Shown: piece by piece, positions 212 to 11,775 of the stretch
Position numbering within the stretch: the first letter of the stretch is position 1
Layout of the letters: the number at the start of each line of letters is the position of its first letter
Assembly: GCA_044356455.1 (NCBI GenBank)
Contig: JBIKWF010000006.1
Coordinates: forward strand, 1-64,000
Length of the DNA stretch: 64,000 nucleotides
Source of the DNA: Bdellovibrionota bacterium
GTDB lineage: Bacteria; Bdellovibrionota_C; UBA2361; JBGSMV01
Direction of reading: 5' to 3'
Made by a program: the position numbers and the translations under genes
Notes under the pieces: model-generated
Told to the model about the DNA's origin: nothing
The model's database searches: none
Seen by the model: the letters and a program-made list of their open reading frames with translations, nothing else

Positions 212-745
212 ATGGAATCATTGACGTCTGATCAACTAGGTAATTTAGTCCTCTTAATTCGGGGGCGAAAAGTGATGTTGTCTATGCACTTAGCAGAGCT
301 TTACGAAGTTGAAGTTCGCGCCCTCACACAGGCTGTCAAAAGAAATCTAGACCACTTCCCCGAAGATTTTATGTTCCAATTGACCTCAGAGGAGGTCGAC
401 TCTTTAAGATCACAAAATGTGATCTTGAACATCGGCAAAAGAGGTCACAATATCAAATACTTGCCCTATGCATTCACGCAAGAAGGGATAGCAATGCTTT
501 CGAGCGTGCTGAAGAGTTCTCGAGCTGTCCTAGTGAATATTGCAATCATGCGGACCTTCGTGAGGCTGCGTGAACTGATGAGTTCTCATCACGAACTTGC
601 GCAAAAGATTGAGTCTCTCGAGCGGCGCTACGACGGCCAGTTCAAGGTGGTATTTAACAGTATTCGTAAATTGATTGATGCTCAACCAAAGGAACTGTTG
701 CGCGTGCCACCCTCTAAAGCAAAAATCGGCTTTGGCAGGGATTAG
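212..745 (+). CDS. ORF6N (KilA-N-like) domain DNA-binding protein
   Basis: IRGRKVML..LAELYEV...L.QAVKRN..FPEDFMFQL and PYAFTQEGIAMLSSVL are characteristic ORF6N motifs; ends in KIGF. Confidence 0.9.
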   Translation: MESLTSDQLGNLVLLIRGRKVMLSMHLAELYEVEVRALTQAVKRNLDHFPEDFMFQLTSEEVDSLRSQNVILNIGKRGHNIKYLPYAFTQEGIAMLSSVLKSSRAVLVNIAIMRTFVRLRELMSSHHELAQKIESLERRYDGQFKVVFNSIRKLIDAQPKELLRVPPSKAKIGFGRD

Positions 746-1912: not shown

Positions 1913-2180
1913 GTATCCGTCCCTTAAGCCCCAGGCTTGGCAACAACTTTCCATTTGTTTGGGAGAGGCGTGGCAAGGTCAGGCTCTGTTCGTGCGTCAA
2001 GTCGTGGCAGTATATCATTGAAATACTGGTAGATGTTTACCTTGTTGAGCCTGCATAAGTAGATGAGAGAAAAGAAGATGGCAGCGCACATGGCTCCTTC
2101 GCGAGGGCCAGCAAACATCCAATTTTTCGGCCATGTGCGACAGGTCGCATCTGGTTCTCGATGAGGTTGTTGTCGAGAGC
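1913..2180 (-). pseudogene. IS66-family transposase (TnpC) 3' remnant with right end
   Basis: LDNNLIENQMRPVAHGRK, then a 1-nt frameshift to NWMFAGPREGA..AAIFFSLI..CRLN.VN.YQY..DILPRL. GTATCCGTCC at 1913 resembles an IS66 terminus. Confidence 0.85.
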
Positions 2181-2248
2181 AACAGCTGGAGGGACGCTCG
2201 TGGGTGGCACTAACGCCTCCACACCCGTTTCTCCGTACGACTTAACTG

Positions 2249-2680: not shown

Positions 2681-3706
2681 CTAAAGAATGGTAATCGCAA
2701 ACCGCCCCTCAAACGTGCAAAGCGTCGCCTCTGCAACTTTTTCACCGTTGATAACCACCGCCACGGTATCGTTTGCCACCACCCCCGTATCCCAAAAGGC
2801 GCCGGACTGAGAGAGCTCTGCCATCTGCATGCCATCCATACGAAACACGGCAGCAGCAACTGAAAGGCGCGTAGTACCTTCAGGCAAAGAATTGGCGGGA
2901 AGAGGTCCTGGCACTACTTCAAACCCAAGACGACCCTGAATGTCACACAGACGCCCCGGCATCCACGGTTTCCCCGCAAAGCGAATAATAACTTGATCGG
3001 TGATTGGAACTTCAAGATCGACTACTGAGCCTGGCTTGAGGTAGTCGACAAGCATCGCAGGCGGAACGGCAAGCTGCGCAATCTCTAAGTGCACATCCCC
3101 TTCCCCTTCGTTAGCCCTCGAGCCAGAGCGAATTTGACGTCGCCAGAGGCTGTCGAGTCTTTCTACCAAGGATTTTCCGAGAGCAAGCCAAATCGCGCAG
3201 TTGCTACGCTGAACTTCAACGTTAATCTTAACCACTCCGGCAGGATCAATGGTGAACGCATCCTTTTCCGACTCAAAGCGCACGACGGAGGATTCAGGTC
3301 CACTCCATGAGGACTCAAGGCTCACCAAAAGGCGGCGCGCGAGATACTCGGCGACCACTCCTGAAGCTTCTGAACTCCCTCCGGGAACCACCGCCTCAAG
3401 AACAACACCTGCTGAAATATCATCGAGGAAGATACCCAAGGCCTCGTCATCAACACTGCAGTAGAACCCAGTCGCAAGTCCCTTCGGCAAGGACAGTGCC
3501 GGCTTCACTTCGAGCATTTTGAAATCAACGCCGAGTGAATGCGCGAGCGGGAGCCAGTGCGCAGGGAACGCGGGAAACCATTTTTCCGGTCTACAACGCA
3601 GGAAACCACGCGAAAGCTTTGCTTCCTGACTATCAACCTTCTTCAGCGACCGACGCGGATCCCACGTGGTGAGCGCTGGGGTTATTTCGTCACTACTCTC
3701 CTGCAT
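2681..3706 (-). CDS. SctQ/FliM-FliN-like C-ring (SpoA domain) protein
   Basis: Two C-terminal SpoA-like segments (LKPGSVVDL..GRLCDIQGRLGFEV; V.VVINGEKVAEATLCTFEGRFAITI); same operon as the SctJ-like gene. Confidence 0.75.
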   Translation of the reverse strand: MQESSDEITPALTTWDPRRSLKKVDSQEAKLSRGFLRCRPEKWFPAFPAHWLPLAHSLGVDFKMLEVKPALSLPKGLATGFYCSVDDEALGIFLDDISAGVVLEAVVPGGSSEASGVVAEYLARRLLVSLESSWSGPESSVVRFESEKDAFTIDPAGVVKINVEVQRSNCAIWLALGKSLVERLDSLWRRQIRSGSRANEGEGDVHLEIAQLAVPPAMLVDYLKPGSVVDLEVPITDQVIIRFAGKPWMPGRLCDIQGRLGFEVVPGPLPANSLPEGTTRLSVAAAVFRMDGMQMAELSQSGAFWDTGVVANDTVAVVINGEKVAEATLCTFEGRFAITIL

Positions 3707-4007
3707 GAGCTACTAGTTCCTCTTCCAATAAAGACTTACGTTCCTCGGCTCTCGCAACTTCTCGGGCCGCCTCTCCGCGCTCCTTGAGGCGCTTCTCAAG
3801 CTCCTCTCGCAGTTGCCGTCTGCGCGCATCTGCCTGCATCACTGCTCGGGCATGACCCGTGCGGACGGCTCGCCCAGGATCAAACTGGTCGAGCGAGAAC
3901 CTAATCCCCGTAATTACCTGGTCGATTCCTGCCAGCGCCGCTTCACGGCGTCTGAGCTCTTGAACGACCGACTGCAATTCGCGCTCGAGATCTTCTTTTT
4001 CACTCAC
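3693..4007 (-). CDS. Coiled-coil protein, SctO/FliJ-like
   Basis: 104-aa charged helical protein overlapping both neighbours in the T3SS-like operon. Confidence 0.5.
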   Translation of the reverse strand: MSEKEDLERELQSVVQELRRREAALAGIDQVITGIRFSLDQFDPGRAVRTGHARAVMQADARRRQLREELEKRLKERGEAAREVARAEERKSLLEEELVAHAGE

Positions 4008-4225
4008 CTCATTTCCTTCAGCGCATCTCTGAGAAGTGTTCCTACAAGCGGCATACGCAGCTCTGGCTCCACTCCTGCAAGATCAAGCGCCGCTCGCTTA
4101 AGCCCCTGACCATTCACTGAGTCATTCTCAAGATACATGCCCGCCTCACGCCCATCGAGAAGGACGGCTACTGCCACGAGGGCTCTTTGACGCGGGCTTA
4201 AACTTCGAAATCGCTGAGCATCCAT
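4004..4225 (-). CDS. Small FliG N-terminal-like / SctK-position protein
   Basis: LSPRQRALVAVAVLL resembles the FliG N-terminal helix; directly follows the SctJ-like gene with an ATGA/GTGA-type overlap downstream. Confidence 0.45.
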   Translation of the reverse strand: MDAQRFRSLSPRQRALVAVAVLLDGREAGMYLENDSVNGQGLKRAALDLAGVEPELRMPLVGTLLRDALKEMR

Positions 4226-4228
4226 AGA

Positions 4229-5158
4229 CTATGCACCCTCCTTAGGGGGCTCCGGGAGTTCTCGCTTGGTCCTTTCAGGCCGCCCTTGGGGCAGTCGCTT
4301 CTGAGACGAAAGTCCCTGACTCGGCGCCTGAGTAGCTACGCGGGCTGCCATAAGGGCATGACCTATGAGCACCCCGAAGCCAAATACGAGCACCACGCCA
4401 AGCAAGATTCCTCCCGCGAGACTATCGTATTCGTCATCAGGAACGCGCCAGAACCAAAGAAACTGAGTCAACGGCACCTTACGAATCGCGCCATAGAGAT
4501 CGCGCTCCAACCCCTGCGAAATAGCGACGACACCCGAACCTGGGCGTGAAGAGTTTGAATCTCCTTGGCCGCCGCCAGGGGCATCCAGATAGAGCTGCAC
4601 TTTAATCTGATCGGCGGAGATACCAGGCAGACCTTGAGCGAGCATTGATCGCACGTCTTCCTCTCGCACCGTGCTCCCCTGCCGTACTCGCACAATTCCA
4701 GAAACTCCCGCCTGGGCTGCCCCTCCAAAGAGCTCAGACGAGGCTGAATTAAGCCGCACCACCACACGCGCCTGACTTATTCCAGGGTGATTCTGAAGGG
4801 CTTCCTCAAGCTCCGCGGCAAGCGCTCTATCAATACGTAGCGCTTCTACCTCACGAGAATCAGGCATGAGACCACGCTGCGCCACCATCTCGCCAAAGGA
4901 ACTGCGCGGCGCCGAAGGAAGCCCTAGCTCATGAAGCAAGGCCATGCCTTCAGAGTAGGAAGAGCGGCGTACCTCGACACGGTACTTCCCTCTCCCTCCG
5001 GTCTCCTTCTCTACCACGGCGCTAATTCCGCGGCTCACGAGCTCCGCAACAATCTCCCCTGCTTGGTCCTGCGTGAGATCGTCGCGCAGCGTCACTGTGT
5101 TGCACCCACAAAGTGCAAGACACAGGAGAACAATCAGGAGGTAACGCAGAATTCGCAT
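4229..5158 (-). CDS. sctJ: SctJ/YscJ (FliF-like) inner-membrane ring lipoprotein
   Basis: Lipobox LCGC; L..DL.Q.QA.EI...L...GI.A; GLP.....FGEM....GL.P....E; AL..ELE..L...PGI.QARV; C-terminal transmembrane helix. Confidence 0.85.
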   Translation of the reverse strand: MRILRYLLIVLLCLALCGCNTVTLRDDLTQDQAGEIVAELVSRGISAVVEKETGGRGKYRVEVRRSSYSEGMALLHELGLPSAPRSSFGEMVAQRGLMPDSREVEALRIDRALAAELEEALQNHPGISQARVVVRLNSASSELFGGAAQAGVSGIVRVRQGSTVREEDVRSMLAQGLPGISADQIKVQLYLDAPGGGQGDSNSSRPGSGVVAISQGLERDLYGAIRKVPLTQFLWFWRVPDDEYDSLAGGILLGVVLVFGFGVLIGHALMAARVATQAPSQGLSSQKRLPQGRPERTKRELPEPPKEGA

Positions 5159-5184: not shown

Positions 5185-6639
5185 TTATTTAGCTCCAGGA
5201 GCCGTAATGAGGCATACCATAAACTCAATTTCACCAAGGCGCAGCCAGTCACCATGCTCAATCTTCACCGCGTCGGTAACGCGCTGGAAACCTTCTTGTC
5301 CCTTGCGCTTAACCCACACGCCGCGATCGCTCATCAAGTCCTGAACTCTGAGCCCCTCTCCTACACCCACTGCGACGAGGGCATGAGGCGTCGAGATGGA
5401 AGGGTCATCCAGGACCACGTCATGCGGCTTTAAAGGCGAGCCAGTGAAGAAAAAGCGTCCCTCACGAAGCTCTGAGGCAGTCCCTCGAGGATCCGAGTAG
5501 CTTACAAGCCAACCAACAAGTCGGCCGGTATGCGCTTGAGCAAACTCAACATTGCCCTGGGATTCACGTCCCTGACGCTGATCCCCTTGGCGCTGCTCAC
5601 GAGGATGCTGTTCACGAGAGTGCTGTTCGCGGGCCTCGGGCCTGCGAGCGCCCTGAGAGGCAGCTGAAACTTGAGGAGAAGCGGTTGAGCGATCCGGTCG
5701 CTGATCGCCGCGAGCCTGTTGACCACGGCCTTCCTCTTGGCGAGAGGAGCTCTGCTGTGGAGATCTTCCCTGCTCGGAACGACCCTGCTCTTGGCGACTC
5801 TGTTCTTGGCGACCCTGCTCGGGTCGTCGCTGATCTTGGCGAGTCTCGGAGCGAGCGGCGCCTCCCGAGGGCGCACTATTTCCACGGCTCTGCCGATCAC
5901 GAGAAGCATTTTCACGCGGGCTTGGAACCTGAGTCCAACCACTTTCTTCACCCGCGGCACTTCCCGCTTTTGGCTCCTCTTCACGACCACGCCCGCTTCC
6001 GAACGAAAGGTTCGAAGGCTTGTTGGCCTTGCGCGGACCTGTCTCAATAATTACTCGAGGCTGAGCTTCCGCACTGCGCGGCTCCGTTGCTTTGGCCTCT
6101 GGAGCTACCGCAGTTGGTTCACGAGGCTTTTCAGCCGCGAGCGGCCGAGCCTCTTCGGCATGCGACGCGGAAGTACCGTTACCCGCAGGCTCCTCAGCAT
6201 CAATTTCTTGAATATAGGCACTGAGAGGATCATCATCTCGCTCTGACGCACTGGAAGAAGCAGCGCCAGAAAAGAGACCTGCCTCCGCCCCAGACGAGTC
6301 GGCCACAGGAGACTCAGCCGCAGAAGCTGCCTCAAGCAGGGGTTCCGTAGCACCCAACCCCTCAGACTCCGCCGATGCCTCAAGAGCACTTGCGCCCGTC
6401 TCGCCCGCCATCTCTTGGCGAATAAGACCGGCTGCTGCTGAAAGATCGCTACCTGAAACTGAGGTGGTTCTTTGCCGCACTCGTCCGCTCTTGGGAGAAT
6501 CACGCGGCGGTTCGTCAACCTTCTGCGCAGCGGCATCAAGAGTCGCCCCGCACATACGGCAACGAGTAGAAACAGCCGGGACAAGACTACGGCACGCTGG
6601 GCAACGAACAAATGTTAATTCAGTGCTATCGGTTGACAT
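5185..6639 (-). CDS. Zinc-ribbon + long disordered linker + C-terminal degenerate FHA domain protein
   Basis: N-terminal CPAC..CRMC; E/Q/R-rich repeats (EQGRS); LVGWLV...ISTPHA...DLMSDRGVWV...GDWLRLG. Confidence 0.8.
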   Translation of the reverse strand: MSTDSTELTFVRCPACRSLVPAVSTRCRMCGATLDAAAQKVDEPPRDSPKSGRVRQRTTSVSGSDLSAAAGLIRQEMAGETGASALEASAESEGLGATEPLLEAASAAESPVADSSGAEAGLFSGAASSSASERDDDPLSAYIQEIDAEEPAGNGTSASHAEEARPLAAEKPREPTAVAPEAKATEPRSAEAQPRVIIETGPRKANKPSNLSFGSGRGREEEPKAGSAAGEESGWTQVPSPRENASRDRQSRGNSAPSGGAARSETRQDQRRPEQGRQEQSRQEQGRSEQGRSPQQSSSRQEEGRGQQARGDQRPDRSTASPQVSAASQGARRPEAREQHSREQHPREQRQGDQRQGRESQGNVEFAQAHTGRLVGWLVSYSDPRGTASELREGRFFFTGSPLKPHDVVLDDPSISTPHALVAVGVGEGLRVQDLMSDRGVWVKRKGQEGFQRVTDAVKIEHGDWLRLGEIEFMVCLITAPGAK

Positions 6640-8131: not shown

Positions 8132-8437
8132 TAACCCTCGGTCGAACTAAACCTTCGCAAACTTATCGTGTCGACTCTATCTATCGGACGAAAACCAATA
8201 AAACTACTTCCTTGACCATATTTTAGAGTGAAAAGAAAAAATTCCGATCCACGTATTTACTAAGACACCACGTTTCAGTAACGCCGTTTCACTAAGTTTG
8301 GCATCGCAAATAGAATCCTATCATCGTACATAGTGAATAGAACTGCAGCCCCAAGCGAAGATACTGCATTTGGCAAATGTGTTCACGCAGCACAGCTTGT
8401 CTTGGGTGGCTTGCCTGTTGCTTTGAGGAGCATCCCT

Positions 8438-8800
8438 GTGTCCAAAAAAATCTTAATTATCGACGACGATGTAACCGCCCTCGATATTGTTGACTTTCTC
8501 TTTGAGGACCAGGGCTTTGAAGTCGTACGCCGTGCGGACGGATTTGCGGCTCTCGAGTGCATTGAGAAGGAGCGCCCCGACGCGGTGCTGGTTGACTTGA
8601 TGATGCCCCGCATGAACGGACAAGAGACCGTACGCCATATTCGCGGCAAAGGTATCAAGGTTCCTATTGTTGCGTTTACCGCCCTGGATGATCCAGAAGT
8701 CCACAAAGAAGCACGCGAAGCTGGGTGTGATCTCGTGCTCACCAAGCCCTGCAAACCTGCCGTTCTCGTGAAGCATATCGAAGAGTTACTTGCGCAGTAA
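8438..8800 (+). CDS. Single-domain response regulator (CheY-like)
   Basis: KKILIIDDD...VDLMMP..NG...FTA...KP; GTG start preceded by GAGGAG. Confidence 0.9.
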   Translation: MSKKILIIDDDVTALDIVDFLFEDQGFEVVRRADGFAALECIEKERPDAVLVDLMMPRMNGQETVRHIRGKGIKVPIVAFTALDDPEVHKEAREAGCDLVLTKPCKPAVLVKHIEELLAQ

Positions 8801-8819
8801 CGCGCTGACTAATGCCGAG

Positions 8820-8949
8820 GGAACCCGTTAAAAACCCCCATTCTTAATAAACCTCTGCGTACCTCCGCGTCCTCTGTGGTGAATTTCTACATTAAAATTT
8901 CACCACAAAGGACACAGAGGTAAACAGAGGTGAATTCTTCAAAGATTCC
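8820..8949. mobile_element. Palindromic MITE, copy 1
   Basis: GGAACC...GATTCC ends; internal CCTCTGTGGTGAA / TTCACCACAAAGG hairpin; abuts the stop codon of the FHA gene. Confidence 0.8.
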
Positions 8950-9270
8950 CTAAGCTTCAAAGCGCAGGAAGAGCGCACCGACGTTAACCTCATCTCCTTC
9001 TTTCAAAGCGAGAGGCTTGCCGCGCTCCACGCGTACAGTTCGATTGAGAAAGGTACCATTGAGGCTACCGAGGTCTTCCACCGTAACAGCATTTCCCGAC
9101 ACTCGAATCATTGCGTGTTTGCGAGAAATTTTCGCCTCTGTATCTTCCGCTTCGAGATCTATCTCTGGAAATGCCGCATCCTCGGGGTCCCAGCGACCTA
9201 TCAGGTTGGTGCCTTCAACGAGTTCAAATTCCCTTCCCTTGGCACTCCCGTTCATAAGAACCAATCGCAT
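8950..9270 (-). CDS. Stand-alone FHA domain protein
   Basis: IGRW...ISRKHA...EDLGSLNGT; ATG at 9270 preceded by GGAGG. Confidence 0.9.
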   Translation of the reverse strand: MRLVLMNGSAKGREFELVEGTNLIGRWDPEDAAFPEIDLEAEDTEAKISRKHAMIRVSGNAVTVEDLGSLNGTFLNRTVRVERGKPLALKEGDEVNVGALFLRFEA

Positions 9271-10116
9271 GAATTCCTCCAGTAGAACGGCATTATATAA
9301 ATAATCGCCTCTTCCACCTAAGATTCGACACAATGCGGCAGAGACTATAGAGGAACTGAACCGAACCGGCGCGCTCAGAATCAAATAAGAAGGGGGAAAG
9401 TTAGGCTACCGCTGGTGAGCCAGGGGCCGCAAAGGCACCTCTCCTAGAATTTTACAACGCTTATGTGCTAGGATTTGTTATAAATTTACGTCCTCTGGTG
9501 GATTGCTTGGCTCAGAAAAGCGCTCTCCTCTGTAGGACCATTTTTAATGATTTACATTTTTACTGGGTCTGCGCGTAACCTTCTGCCTGAACTTTTTGGT
9601 CAGCCGCTTGGTTCCGCAAGACTTCTTTAGGCCACATCAGAAGCGACTGTTTCTGAGCTGGGCCGGACGTTTGATTTGTAAGGGATAGTGCATCGTGTCG
9701 ATGCCCACTAAAAACTTAAGAGCCTTAAAGGCACCATCTTCCCAAAGGGAGACGGTGAGTGAGAGCGCTCCTGCGTTTGAATCTTCTCATGGGTCCTCTT
9801 TAACGAGGAACCTGGGACGAATCGTGGGCGAAATTATCTGCCAAACTAGTAGCGGTACTCAGAATCACCTGGCTCGCACGCAAGATTCACGAGTGCTCAT
9901 AGTTAGCAGGGACGCGCGTTGCCTTACTTCCCTTACACGCAGCTCTCGCCCTGCGCGAGAACAAGCAGTTCCCTCTTTCGATGTCCCACCAAGGCATCCA
10001 AAGTCGCAACTCTTTAATCATTCGCGTCCGATACTGCCCATGAGCATGCGTTCACGCAGCATGCTGAGCTCAGCTTCACGCGCCTCTGAGTGGTCCAATC
10101 GTGGAGGAAAATCTCG

Positions 10117-11775
10117 ATGGATCGCCGCATGCTCATTAACGCCGTGCACTCTGAGGAGTGCCGGATTGCCATTGTCGAAGACAATGCTCTCGTAGAACTC
10201 GAAATCGAGTCAAACCTTGGGAAGAAGCTCAAGGGGAACATCTATAAAGCTAAAATTTCGCGCGTAGAGCCGAGTCTCCAAGCCGCCTTCATTGATATCG
10301 GCACCTCGCGTAACGGCTTTCTGCAGATTAACGATATCCATCCCTCATTCTTCAGGAATGCGCGGGGTGGACGTGGGGGCGCCTCTCAGGGCGGCCGACC
10401 TCGCATTCAAGAGGTCCTAGAGCCAGGGCAAGAGATTATCGTTCAAGTGGTAAAGGAAGAGCGTGAGATGAAGGGCGCAACCCTTACCACGTACCTTTCA
10501 CTTCCGGGACGCTATGTGGTGATTATGCCCGGCAGCGACCGCGGCGGAATTTCCCGCAAGATTAGCGATGGAGACCAGCGCAAGCGCCTTAAAAGTCTGG
10601 CGCAAGAACTCGAGATGCCCCTCGGGATTGGCATGATCGTAAGAACTGCCGGACTCGATCGGTCCCTCAGCGAGCTCTCACGCGATGTCTCCCTGCAGCT
10701 CAAAGTGTGGGAGCGCATTGTGAACGATGCTCAGAAGGCGCGCACTCCCACCTGCCTCTACGAAGAGAGTGACTTAGCAACCCGCGTCATTCGCGATTAC
10801 TTCACGCCTGAAGTGCGTGAAATTCTCATCGACGATCCAGACACGTTTGAGCGAGTGAAAGAGTTCGTGGGCCAAGTAATGCCGCGCTACCGCTCCCGCG
10901 TGAAGCTTTACAACGACGAACGCCCCCTGCTCTCCTACTTCAATGTCGAAGACCAAGTCACCGACACGATGAAGCGTGAGGTTAAGCTTAAATCTGGCGG
11001 CGCAATTGTCATTGATACCATTGAGGCCCTCGTCGCGGTCGATGTGAACTCCGGTAAAGCCACTGGCGCCGAGAACATTGAAGAAACCGCCTACCGCACC
11101 AACATGGAAGCCGCGGATGAAATTGCGCGGCAACTTCGCCTCCGCGACCTTGGTGGTCTGATTGTAGTCGACTTTATCGATATGATGGACCGGCGTCACA
11201 AGGCCGCCATCGAGCGCAAAATTCGCGAGGCGGTCAAGAACGACAAAGCTCGTATTGAGATTGGTCGTCTCTCTCGTTTTGGCTTGCTTGAAATGTCACG
11301 CCAAAGGCTAAGAGCCTCACTCAGCAGCCAAAGCCATCTTAAGTGCTCACACTGCCAAGGGATTGGACACGTTCGAAACCCTGAGCTTGTCGCGCTTGAG
11401 ATTCTAAGAAAAATCCAATCTGCAGTTTCCGCGGGACACCTCGCGCTGGTAAAGGCGCGCATGGCACCCGTGGCTGCGATGTTCATTCTCAATAATAAAA
11501 AGACTGAGCTGGTGAAGCTTGAACAAGCGCACCAAATGCGAATCTATATACTCGCCGACGGACGCATGAGCCCTGACGAATACGAGTTCGAGATAGAGGC
11601 TGCCGCAAAATCGGCGGAGATAACGCACGAAGCGCCGCCACCACCACTCCCCGCGGATGAGGACGGAGGCTCTTCCGAAGAGTCAGAAACTCCTGTGGCG
11701 GCGAGCGCCCCGAGCAGCGGGACTGCAGAGGCGGCGCCGCGCTCAACGCAAAGCTCTGAGCCTCAAGACTCGTAA
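10117..11775 (+). CDS. rne: Ribonuclease E/G
   Basis: GNIYKAKI.RVEPSLQAAF, DVNSG, IARQLRLRDLGGLIVVDFIDM, CxxC zinc link; ATG at 10117 follows GGAGG. Confidence 0.95.
   Translation: MDRRMLINAVHSEECRIAIVEDNALVELEIESNLGKKLKGNIYKAKISRVEPSLQAAFIDIGTSRNGFLQINDIHPSFFRNARGGRGGASQGGRPRIQEVLEPGQEIIVQVVKEEREMKGATLTTYLSLPGRYVVIMPGSDRGGISRKISDGDQRKRLKSLAQELEMPLGIGMIVRTAGLDRSLSELSRDVSLQLKVWERIVNDAQKARTPTCLYEESDLATRVIRDYFTPEVREILIDDPDTFERVKEFVGQVMPRYRSRVKLYNDERPLLSYFNVEDQVTDTMKREVKLKSGGAIVIDTIEALVAVDVNSGKATGAENIEETAYRTNMEAADEIARQLRLRDLGGLIVVDFIDMMDRRHKAAIERKIREAVKNDKARIEIGRLSRFGLLEMSRQRLRASLSSQSHLKCSHCQGIGHVRNPELVALEILRKIQSAVSAGHLALVKARMAPVAAMFILNNKKTELVKLEQAHQMRIYILADGRMSPDEYEFEIEAAAKSAEITHEAPPPPLPADEDGGSSEESETPVAASAPSSGTAEAAPRSTQSSEPQDS

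Follow-up and report, generated by a model that had tools for sequence, protein, structure and literature searches.

We analyzed a 64,000-nucleotide stretch of a Bdellovibrionota bacterium (GenBank assembly GCA_044356455.1, contig JBIKWF010000006.1, positions 1 to 64,000; hereafter the window), which carries a minus-strand operon for two recognizable parts of a system for type III secretion (T3SS): the inner-membrane ring lipoprotein SctJ and the C-ring protein SctQ. These genes are almost certainly one piece of a larger cluster, which we call system A, in which the motor genes of a Tad pilus run into those of a type III export gate. We lean towards the reading that this needle-less, secretin-less platform works with the Tad pilus and delivers proteins at the contact site on another cell; by analogy with Myxococcus xanthus, predation on bacteria would be its likeliest use.

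The window operon belongs to a Tad-linked type III cluster

An open reading frame check of the window found four adjoining genes (Table 1), separated by 3, -4 and -14 bases in SctJ-to-SctQ order. Together with matches to PF01514 and PF01052, this bears out an earlier, sequence-only reading, which had seen here four tightly coupled genes, among them a SctJ ring lipoprotein and a double-SpoA SctQ. That reading also spoke of a four-gene operon; the four genes are there, but the operon extends upstream. A zinc-ribbon/FHA gene lies 26 bases upstream of sctJ, and the double-FHA gene beyond it stands directly after a pseudokinase gene in unbroken clusters of relatives; the operon comprises at least five genes, and probably six with the double-FHA gene. 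Among the 29 best-scoring SctJ loci from 40 relatives searched, the gene for a 73-amino-acid (aa) protein and sctQ lay downstream of sctJ in all 29, the zinc-ribbon/FHA gene lay upstream in 28, and the coiled-coil gene was matched in 15. Because these neighbors recur across the relatives' loci, the gene set is not a chance grouping.

We compared gene order in relatives using stretches picked for assembly quality and spread, not randomly. The unbroken cluster measures ~25 kb. Its first half reads phosphatase, FHA, kinase, CpaE, Flp, CpaB, CpaF, TadB, TadC, SctV, and its second half pseudokinase, two FHA genes, SctJ, 73-aa gene, SctO, SctQ and SctR/S/T/U; the window operon is the middle piece. 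The tadC gene stood directly before system A sctV in 21 of 21 informative loci, that of the window's own genome (G000) included (two more loci ended at contig edges), and sctR followed sctQ in 20 of the 26 relatives examined. From the Tad motor to sctQ the genes formed one co-oriented run in nine genomes, and the stretch from the Tad motor to sctU was contiguous in five (G005, G042, G047, G053 and G056), one of which, G047, consists of only three contigs. Of 80 outside sctV loci, none was accompanied, in up to 10 kb of surrounding sequence, by a Tad, pseudokinase or 73-aa gene. Most genomes of the window's order share a break between the pseudokinase and double-FHA genes. The one after sctQ is recent, because a genome of the same genus (G001) retains sctR directly after sctQ.

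We also observed a conserved, oppositely oriented pair of sigma-70-like genes after the TPR gene at the cluster end, both in the window's order and in a second order (loci L091, L093, L105, L110, L120, L142, L157, L159 and L160).

Table 1. Genes of the window operon and a neighboring feature, in window positions
Feature	Position	Strand	Basis
SctJ-type inner-membrane ring lipoprotein, 309 aa	4229..5158	-	PF01514, TIGR02544, lipobox
Four-helix protein of no known family, 73 aa	4004..4225	-	SctK/FliG gene position
Shortened SctO/FliJ-like coiled coil, 104 aa	3693..4007	-	positional orthologues match FliJ
SctQ-type C-ring protein, 341 aa	2681..3706	-	FliM-middle-like domain and two SpoA domains
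Zinc-ribbon and FHA protein, conserved first neighbor of SctJ	5185..6639	-	FHA E 1e-6; 28/29 relatives' loci
Double-FHA protein with C-terminal hydrophobic segment	6788..8131	-	two FHA stretches, E 2.4e-30; synteny
IS66 transposase remnant	1924..2222	-	PF03050 (E 0.001), PF13817 (E 0.0001), each below cut-off

The individual proteins

SctJ matched YscJ_FliF (PF01514) above cut-off (E 2.8e-14) and scored 90 bits against the SctJ model TIGR02544, under that model's cut-off of 162. Its lipobox Cys19 was invariant across 30 aligned orthologues, its profile matched the Nitratidesulfovibrio SctJ at 94 bits, and the genome's FliF is a separate gene of 548 aa. SctQ matched FliMN_C (PF01052) in two stretches, with 49-74% identity among 15 aligned sequences. 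Its structure model (predicted local distance difference test [pLDDT] 86) aligned with the FliM middle domain 4gc8 (Z 13.2, root-mean-square deviation 3.3, 157 aligned) and with the FliM-SpoA::FliN structure 4yxb (Z 12.9, root-mean-square deviation 3.1, 131 aligned); as modeled, the protein would combine a FliM-middle/CheC-like domain with tandem SpoA domains.

Neither of the two small operon genes (73 and 104 aa) had a family match of its own. The 73-aa protein was modeled as four helices (pLDDT 95). A Pfam scan of 28 family members and a PDB sequence search gave no match, the ESM Atlas no usable match, and the family profile did not match the Nitratidesulfovibrio SctK. Structure comparison, a weak test for a small helical fold, gave nothing at E<=0.001 in Foldseek (FliG C-terminal 1qc7 at rank 42, E 8.5) and a best Z of 5.1, to an unrelated protein, in VIA-align. 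Sequence and fold comparisons thus lent no support to the FliG-like label of the sequence-only reading; the gene position, between sctJ and sctO/sctQ, suggests that the protein may be a SctK/FliG-like adaptor. The 104-aa coiled coil is a putative SctO/FliJ-like protein by way of its positional orthologues: the ~160-aa genes at the SctO position in the second order matched FliJ (PF02050) in eight of nine cases (one above cut-off, at 41.7 bits) and YscO-like in three of nine, and the window-side coiled-coil profile matched four of these positional genes weakly (17-19 bits).

Elsewhere in the cluster, the kinase-like protein encoded after sctV was without HRD, DFG and VAxK motifs in 14 of 14 sequences, hence our term pseudokinase. 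CpaF retains its Walker A motif and had no Pfam FHA match. SctU of system A (202-275 aa) was without the NPTH motif and the cytoplasmic switch domain in all 16 sequences, and SctT is known by its position, Pfam recognizing two of the five second-order orthologues tried. The double-FHA protein, whose hydrophobic tail was judged from its translation, may take the place of SctD's cytoplasmic portion. We considered the 85-aa/TPR pair that follows sctU as YscX/YscY and rejected it: the 85-aa protein did not match AscX, and the TPR protein resembles several type III chaperone-like TPR proteins.

The rest of the machine in the same genome

The window's own genome (216 contigs, 93% complete) contains three FHIPEP genes, three FliP/SctR genes, three FliF/SctJ genes and two type III ATPases. 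Contigs C110 and C16 carry a flagellar set, and the genome has its own FliF, FliM, FliN, FlhA and FliI. The remaining type III genes form two non-flagellar systems, A and B. System A consists of the window operon, a piece on C95 (sctR, S, T, N-terminal sctU, 85-aa gene, TPR gene) and a piece on C184 (phosphatase, FHA, kinase, cpaE, Flp pilin, cpaB, cpaF, tadB, tadC, sctV, pseudokinase), in which the Flp pilin, between cpaE and cpaB, scored 27.9 bits, below its cut-off of 32.2. The core proteins SctJ, SctQ, SctR, S, T, U and V and a SctN/SctL ATPase are all encoded in this genome, the ATPase unlinked as a stand-alone sctL-sctN pair on C112:41217-43193, and on the pilus side CpaF, TadB, TadC, CpaB, Flp pilin and TadE/TadG are all present. 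The system is not "minimal", as the sequence-only reading had called it, since SctRSTU, SctV and the SctL-SctN pair lie elsewhere in the genome; its key partner, a Tad motor from the same ancestral cluster, lies outside the window.

System B occupies C7:16096-21970 (sigma factor, sctJ, sctQ, 108-aa gene, sctV, TPR lipoprotein) and C127:33689-43376 (131-aa rod-like gene, coiled coil, fliO, sctR, S, T, sctU); its sctU stops at the position of the cleavage motif, and the C-terminal part of sctU is a separate gene. Several features of system B also occur in myxobacterial long T3SS* loci; its SctV nevertheless groups with that of system A. The genome also holds a second Tad motor cluster (C19:3480-11863), a second Flp pilin (C174:14886-15017) and several scattered TadE/TadG minor-pilin sets (C203, C62, C82, C169 and C122).

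Missing parts and the ATPase

Genome-wide searches placed no SctV, SctR, SctU, ATPase or secretin in the window, in agreement with the sequence-only reading (SctS and SctT were not searched genome-wide). That reading had also reported no needle gene, and no needle family match was found anywhere in the genome: PF09392 matched none of five genomes, this one included, and no needle- or rod-like substrate gene lies within the system A cluster, weak rod or needle likeness being confined to small genes of system B.

The genome has two secretins, which we assigned by gene context (for these two only) to gsp and pilMNOPQ neighborhoods; a secretin search and these neighborhoods gave no dedicated SctC. 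Secretins numbered two or fewer in 64 of 65 genomes, the exception being an extra match at a contig edge, and neither the three-contig G047 nor the five-contig G017 had a third. The Tad secretin RcpA/CpaC/KilC was not found, the RcpA N-terminal domain PF13629 matching none of five genomes above cut-off, a search that a very divergent pore could escape.

Unbroken system A clusters contain no ATPase gene, and no gene (FliO) lies between sctQ and sctR, FliO being located in system B. Genomes of the window's order have at most two type III ATPases, and 16 of 23 genomes from the rest of the class have three FliI/SctN genes. The second order has two types of stand-alone sctL-sctN pair and the window's order one (L254-L272 and C112), with none in G024 and G035. 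The pair on C112 grouped, in a FastTree ATPase tree open to long-branch attraction, with the faster-evolving type. Presence and absence do not line up across genomes: G042 has both SctV types and one ATPase; family f27 lost system A SctV and kept three ATPases; and G060 lost the sctRSTU of system A and retains FliI plus one very divergent ATPase copy. We considered calling system A ATPase-independent and did not adopt the term, because these co-loss patterns contradict each other; the second order, moreover, has extra stand-alone pairs.

Trees support a separate type III lineage for system A

References for the SctV trees came from plasmid records, a profile-library search and named genomes. 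Trees were computed with FastTree (123 rows) and with IQ-TREE under LG+C20 (29 rows picked from those, 587 columns, omitting the long-branch rows of G049, G060 and Priestia), and the two agreed. M. xanthus itself is absent from them and is represented by Archangium and other Myxococcota, among which the short myxobacterial locus is only presumed to be included. SctV of both systems fell outside the FlhA clade (100/100) and outside a clade of myxobacterial-like, chlamydial and injectisome SctV (100/99). Systems A (100/98) and B (100/99) each formed a clade of their own and were sisters with weak support (82/61). An approximately unbiased test rejected a single clade of five system A SctV and six Myxococcota rows (p 0.004). 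In the SctR tree (26 rows, 200 columns), A and B were again sisters (91/87), apart from myxobacteria.

The idea that these genes belong to a relative within the myxobacterial T3SS* clade therefore fails on the SctV test and the separate SctR, and on SctQ as well (see below). The description of a divergent, split system that is neither flagellum nor injectisome holds, with SctV outside both the FlhA and the injectisome clades and no secretin or needle match. Nor did we see either outcome that the sequence-only reading had named against itself. The proteins did not prove to be ordinary FliF/FliM, SctV lying outside FlhA in a genome that has its own FliF, FliM, FliN, FlhA and FliI, and the secretin and needle searches brought up no canonical injectisome elsewhere in the genome.

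The SctV and SctR trees both argue for a separate lineage and an old duplication. That this lineage is the earliest branch is suggested by SctV alone: SctR joins A and B to injectisomes (86/85, with two FliP rows as outgroup) and leaves the root unsettled, SctR branches are long, and a risk of long-branch artifact remains.

Distribution and losses

All 41 genomes of the window's order had SctJ matches, in most cases to two paralogues, and the SctQ profile matched 91 of 96 genomes of the phylum (each at least 85% complete; one class, more than one order). With at most 10 candidates scored per large genome, no SctQ orthologue was found in 201 sampled Myxococcota or in 65 genomes of another small-genome phylum with its own T3SS. 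Homologues carry the labels Oligoflexia, Bdellovibrionales, Deltaproteobacteria, Dadabacteria and Proteobacteria bacterium; the class UBA2361 is placed among basal Bdellovibrionota in the part of the source consulted (PMC13200544). System A is retained in genomes without FlhA (G022, G024, G035, G042, G046 and G056).

Natural partial losses exist in G049 (L148), G060 (L150) and family f27, in which SctV is degraded or sctRSTU is gone and the Tad, pseudokinase and FHA genes stay. Separately, a tight clade of uncultured small-genome bacteria (the phylum of 65 genomes) carries a myxobacteria-like T3SS with sigma factor, SctJ, TPR and FHA genes (L202, L209, L212, L215, L219, L223, L229 and L251).

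A proposed mechanism and its alternatives

We modeled the mechanism on M. xanthus, in which the Kil system recruits T3SS* at prey contact and its tips may carry T3SS* effectors, as the consulted part of the source describes (PMC12075869). In system A, the SctJ ring would surround the gate of SctR, S, T, N-terminal SctU and SctV, and the 73-aa protein would link the ring to the SctQ C-ring, as SctK or FliG does. Export would cross the inner membrane only, by proton motive force and helped by the unlinked SctL-SctN pair; since there is neither a needle substrate nor a SctU switch domain, a needle-length switch would be lacking. Cargo would enter the periplasm and from there pass to the Flp pilus with its TadE/TadG tips. 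Phosphorylation sensed by the FHA proteins would set off assembly locally, with the kinase, phosphatase, pseudokinase and FHA proteins timing it at a contact, and the outer membrane would be crossed via a secretin taken over from another system, PilQ or GspD, or via some unknown pore.

Several observations weigh against this picture. The cluster lies in two or three pieces in most genomes of the window's order, and co-location would in any case show shared regulation more surely than physical union. The gate is eroded: SctT measures ~200 aa with no Pfam match in the window's order, SctO is short or absent, G049 and G060 have no sctRSTU after sctQ, and family f27 lost or degraded system A SctV. 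Two genomes, G024 (97% complete) and G035 (94%), are without any type III ATPase, their SctQ match covering the N-terminal domain only, and co-loss did not tie any one ATPase to system A. No outer-membrane route was identified for system A in our searches. Different pairings are conceivable, since the window's own genome carries another Tad motor (C19) and another type III system. A needle-less system, finally, need not be predatory, because a second M. xanthus T3SS is dispensable for killing according to the consulted parts of two sources (PMC12403147, PMC10469934).

Much of this would also suit a machine whose type III parts have ceased to export, in which ring, C-ring and SctV are a scaffold or sensor that positions and activates the Tad pilus via the kinase, pseudokinase and FHA proteins. 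The gate is far less conserved than SctQ and the 73-aa protein (SctQ identities above; long SctR branches), SctT and SctU are truncated, and the cluster has no needle- or rod-like substrate gene; where sctRSTU is missing after sctQ, in G049 and G060, the Tad, pseudokinase, FHA, sctJ, 73-aa and sctQ genes are still in place, and the two ATPase-less genomes fit as well. We nevertheless consider a scaffold unlikely: all five gate genes are retained in most genomes of both orders, the second order keeps a full-length SctO and two SctL-SctN pairs, and flagellar export is able to run without its ATPase.

The Tad pilus and the platform could also be co-regulated but separate, and serve attachment to or life with a host (e.g., a protist), or envelope building, in place of bacterial killing. 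This we judge improbable. No needle or secretin for eukaryotic delivery was found (translocon families were not searched), and the several TadE/TadG sets, like the FHA genes, have their counterparts in the Kil system; on the other side, system A is kept even in genomes of 1.5-1.9 Mb, pseudokinase and FHA genes also accompany the chlamydial type III system, and one myxobacterial T3SS, in the sources consulted, has no part in killing. Stray flagellar paralogues or an ordinary injectisome scattered over the assembly are most improbable, for although the SctQ model has a FliM-like middle domain, the positional SctO fits FliJ better than YscO and the assembly is fragmented and incomplete, the flagellum has a gene set of its own in this genome, SctV falls outside both reference clades, system A persists without FlhA and not even the three-contig G047 or the five-contig G017 has a third secretin.

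A wider proposal, which we regard as doubtful, is that the phylum holds a non-flagellar type III lineage that branched off ahead of the myxobacterial and injectisome systems and duplicated early into two paralogues. One copy would have merged with a Tad motor into one machine, its pilus taking the needle's place and both halves lacking a pore of their own in the outer membrane; this would be a living intermediate on the way from flagellum to injectisome. The origin of injectisomes from flagella is touched on by the separate and possibly earliest branch of SctV, and by SctQ's likeness to FliM. The cluster also bears on how the Myxococcus T3SS* exports cargo and connects to the Kil pilus, and it names candidate connectors (the pseudokinase, the two FHA proteins, the 73-aa protein and the 85-aa/TPR pair) that make the coupling testable. 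For a widespread uncultured phylum, it suggests a contact-dependent lifestyle.

Flanking regions of the operon

The IS66 remnant lies ~0.5 kb beyond the site at which the operon became separated from sctR-S-T-U. Near it, at window positions 212-745, is an ORF6N-domain gene (PF10543) of a kind typical of mobile DNA, and a similar gene adjoins the C127 locus. Beside the operon head, at 8333-11775, lie a response regulator, a single-FHA gene and an RNase E/G-like gene; this flank recurs in many genomes of the window's order and marks the older rearrangement.

Comparison with known systems

Literature searches, in a library without most subscription journals, found no description of this Tad-T3SS cluster, although supplements of Tad or T3SS surveys may list its genes. 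Canonical injectisomes (Ysc, SPI-1, Hrp2, Rhizobiales, Desulfovibrio and chlamydial) share with system A homologues of SctJ, SctO, SctQ and SctRSTUV, the order J-(K)-O-Q-R-S-T-U and a terminal TPR chaperone-like gene. In contrast to them, system A is without SctC, a needle, a full-size SctD and the switch domain of SctU, and its SctV clade is separate. Nor is it flagellar, its gate lying outside FlhA, its ring protein measuring 309 aa against 548 aa for FliF, and system A being kept without FlhA. With the Tad/Cpa pilus of the Caulobacter type it shares CpaE, Flp, CpaB, CpaF, TadB, TadC and TadE/TadG genes; unlike there, no RcpA/CpaC secretin was found and the motor genes run into a type III gate.

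Abby and Rocha (2012), in the portion consulted (PMC3459982), describe secretin-less Myxo short/long T3SS, with ATPase and in Cystobacterineae only, as the earliest non-flagellar branch and as flagellum/injectisome intermediates. Those systems and system A are alike secretin-less, vertically inherited and conserved in order. The Myxo loci include an ATPase, however, whereas system A belongs to another phylum and its SctV splits off before the Myxo-plus-injectisome clade.

The closest functional parallel is with M. xanthus, as far as the consulted parts of the sources describe it (PMC12075869, PMC10433427, PMC8460266). T3SS* (MXAN_2434-2464) and system A both have an inner-membrane ring, a C-ring and an export gate without secretin or needle, and in both cases the same genome encodes a Tad motor with Flp pilin, several sets of minor pilins and numerous FHA proteins. 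Kil and T3SS* occupy separate loci in Myxococcus, whereas in system A the Tad motor and the gate belong to a single ancestral cluster. The Myxococcus T3SS* carries SctN/SctL, SctD, SctI and FliO, whereas in system A the ATPase is unlinked and FliO absent; Kil possesses a secretin, KilC, and an ATPase fused to FHA, whereas system A has no Tad secretin that we could find and a CpaF without a Pfam FHA match. SctU of system A, unlike that of T3SS*, is without a cytoplasmic domain, and its SctV and SctR do not group with the myxobacterial ones. System A is not a member of that family, but it would work like the Myxococcus Kil/T3SS* pair.

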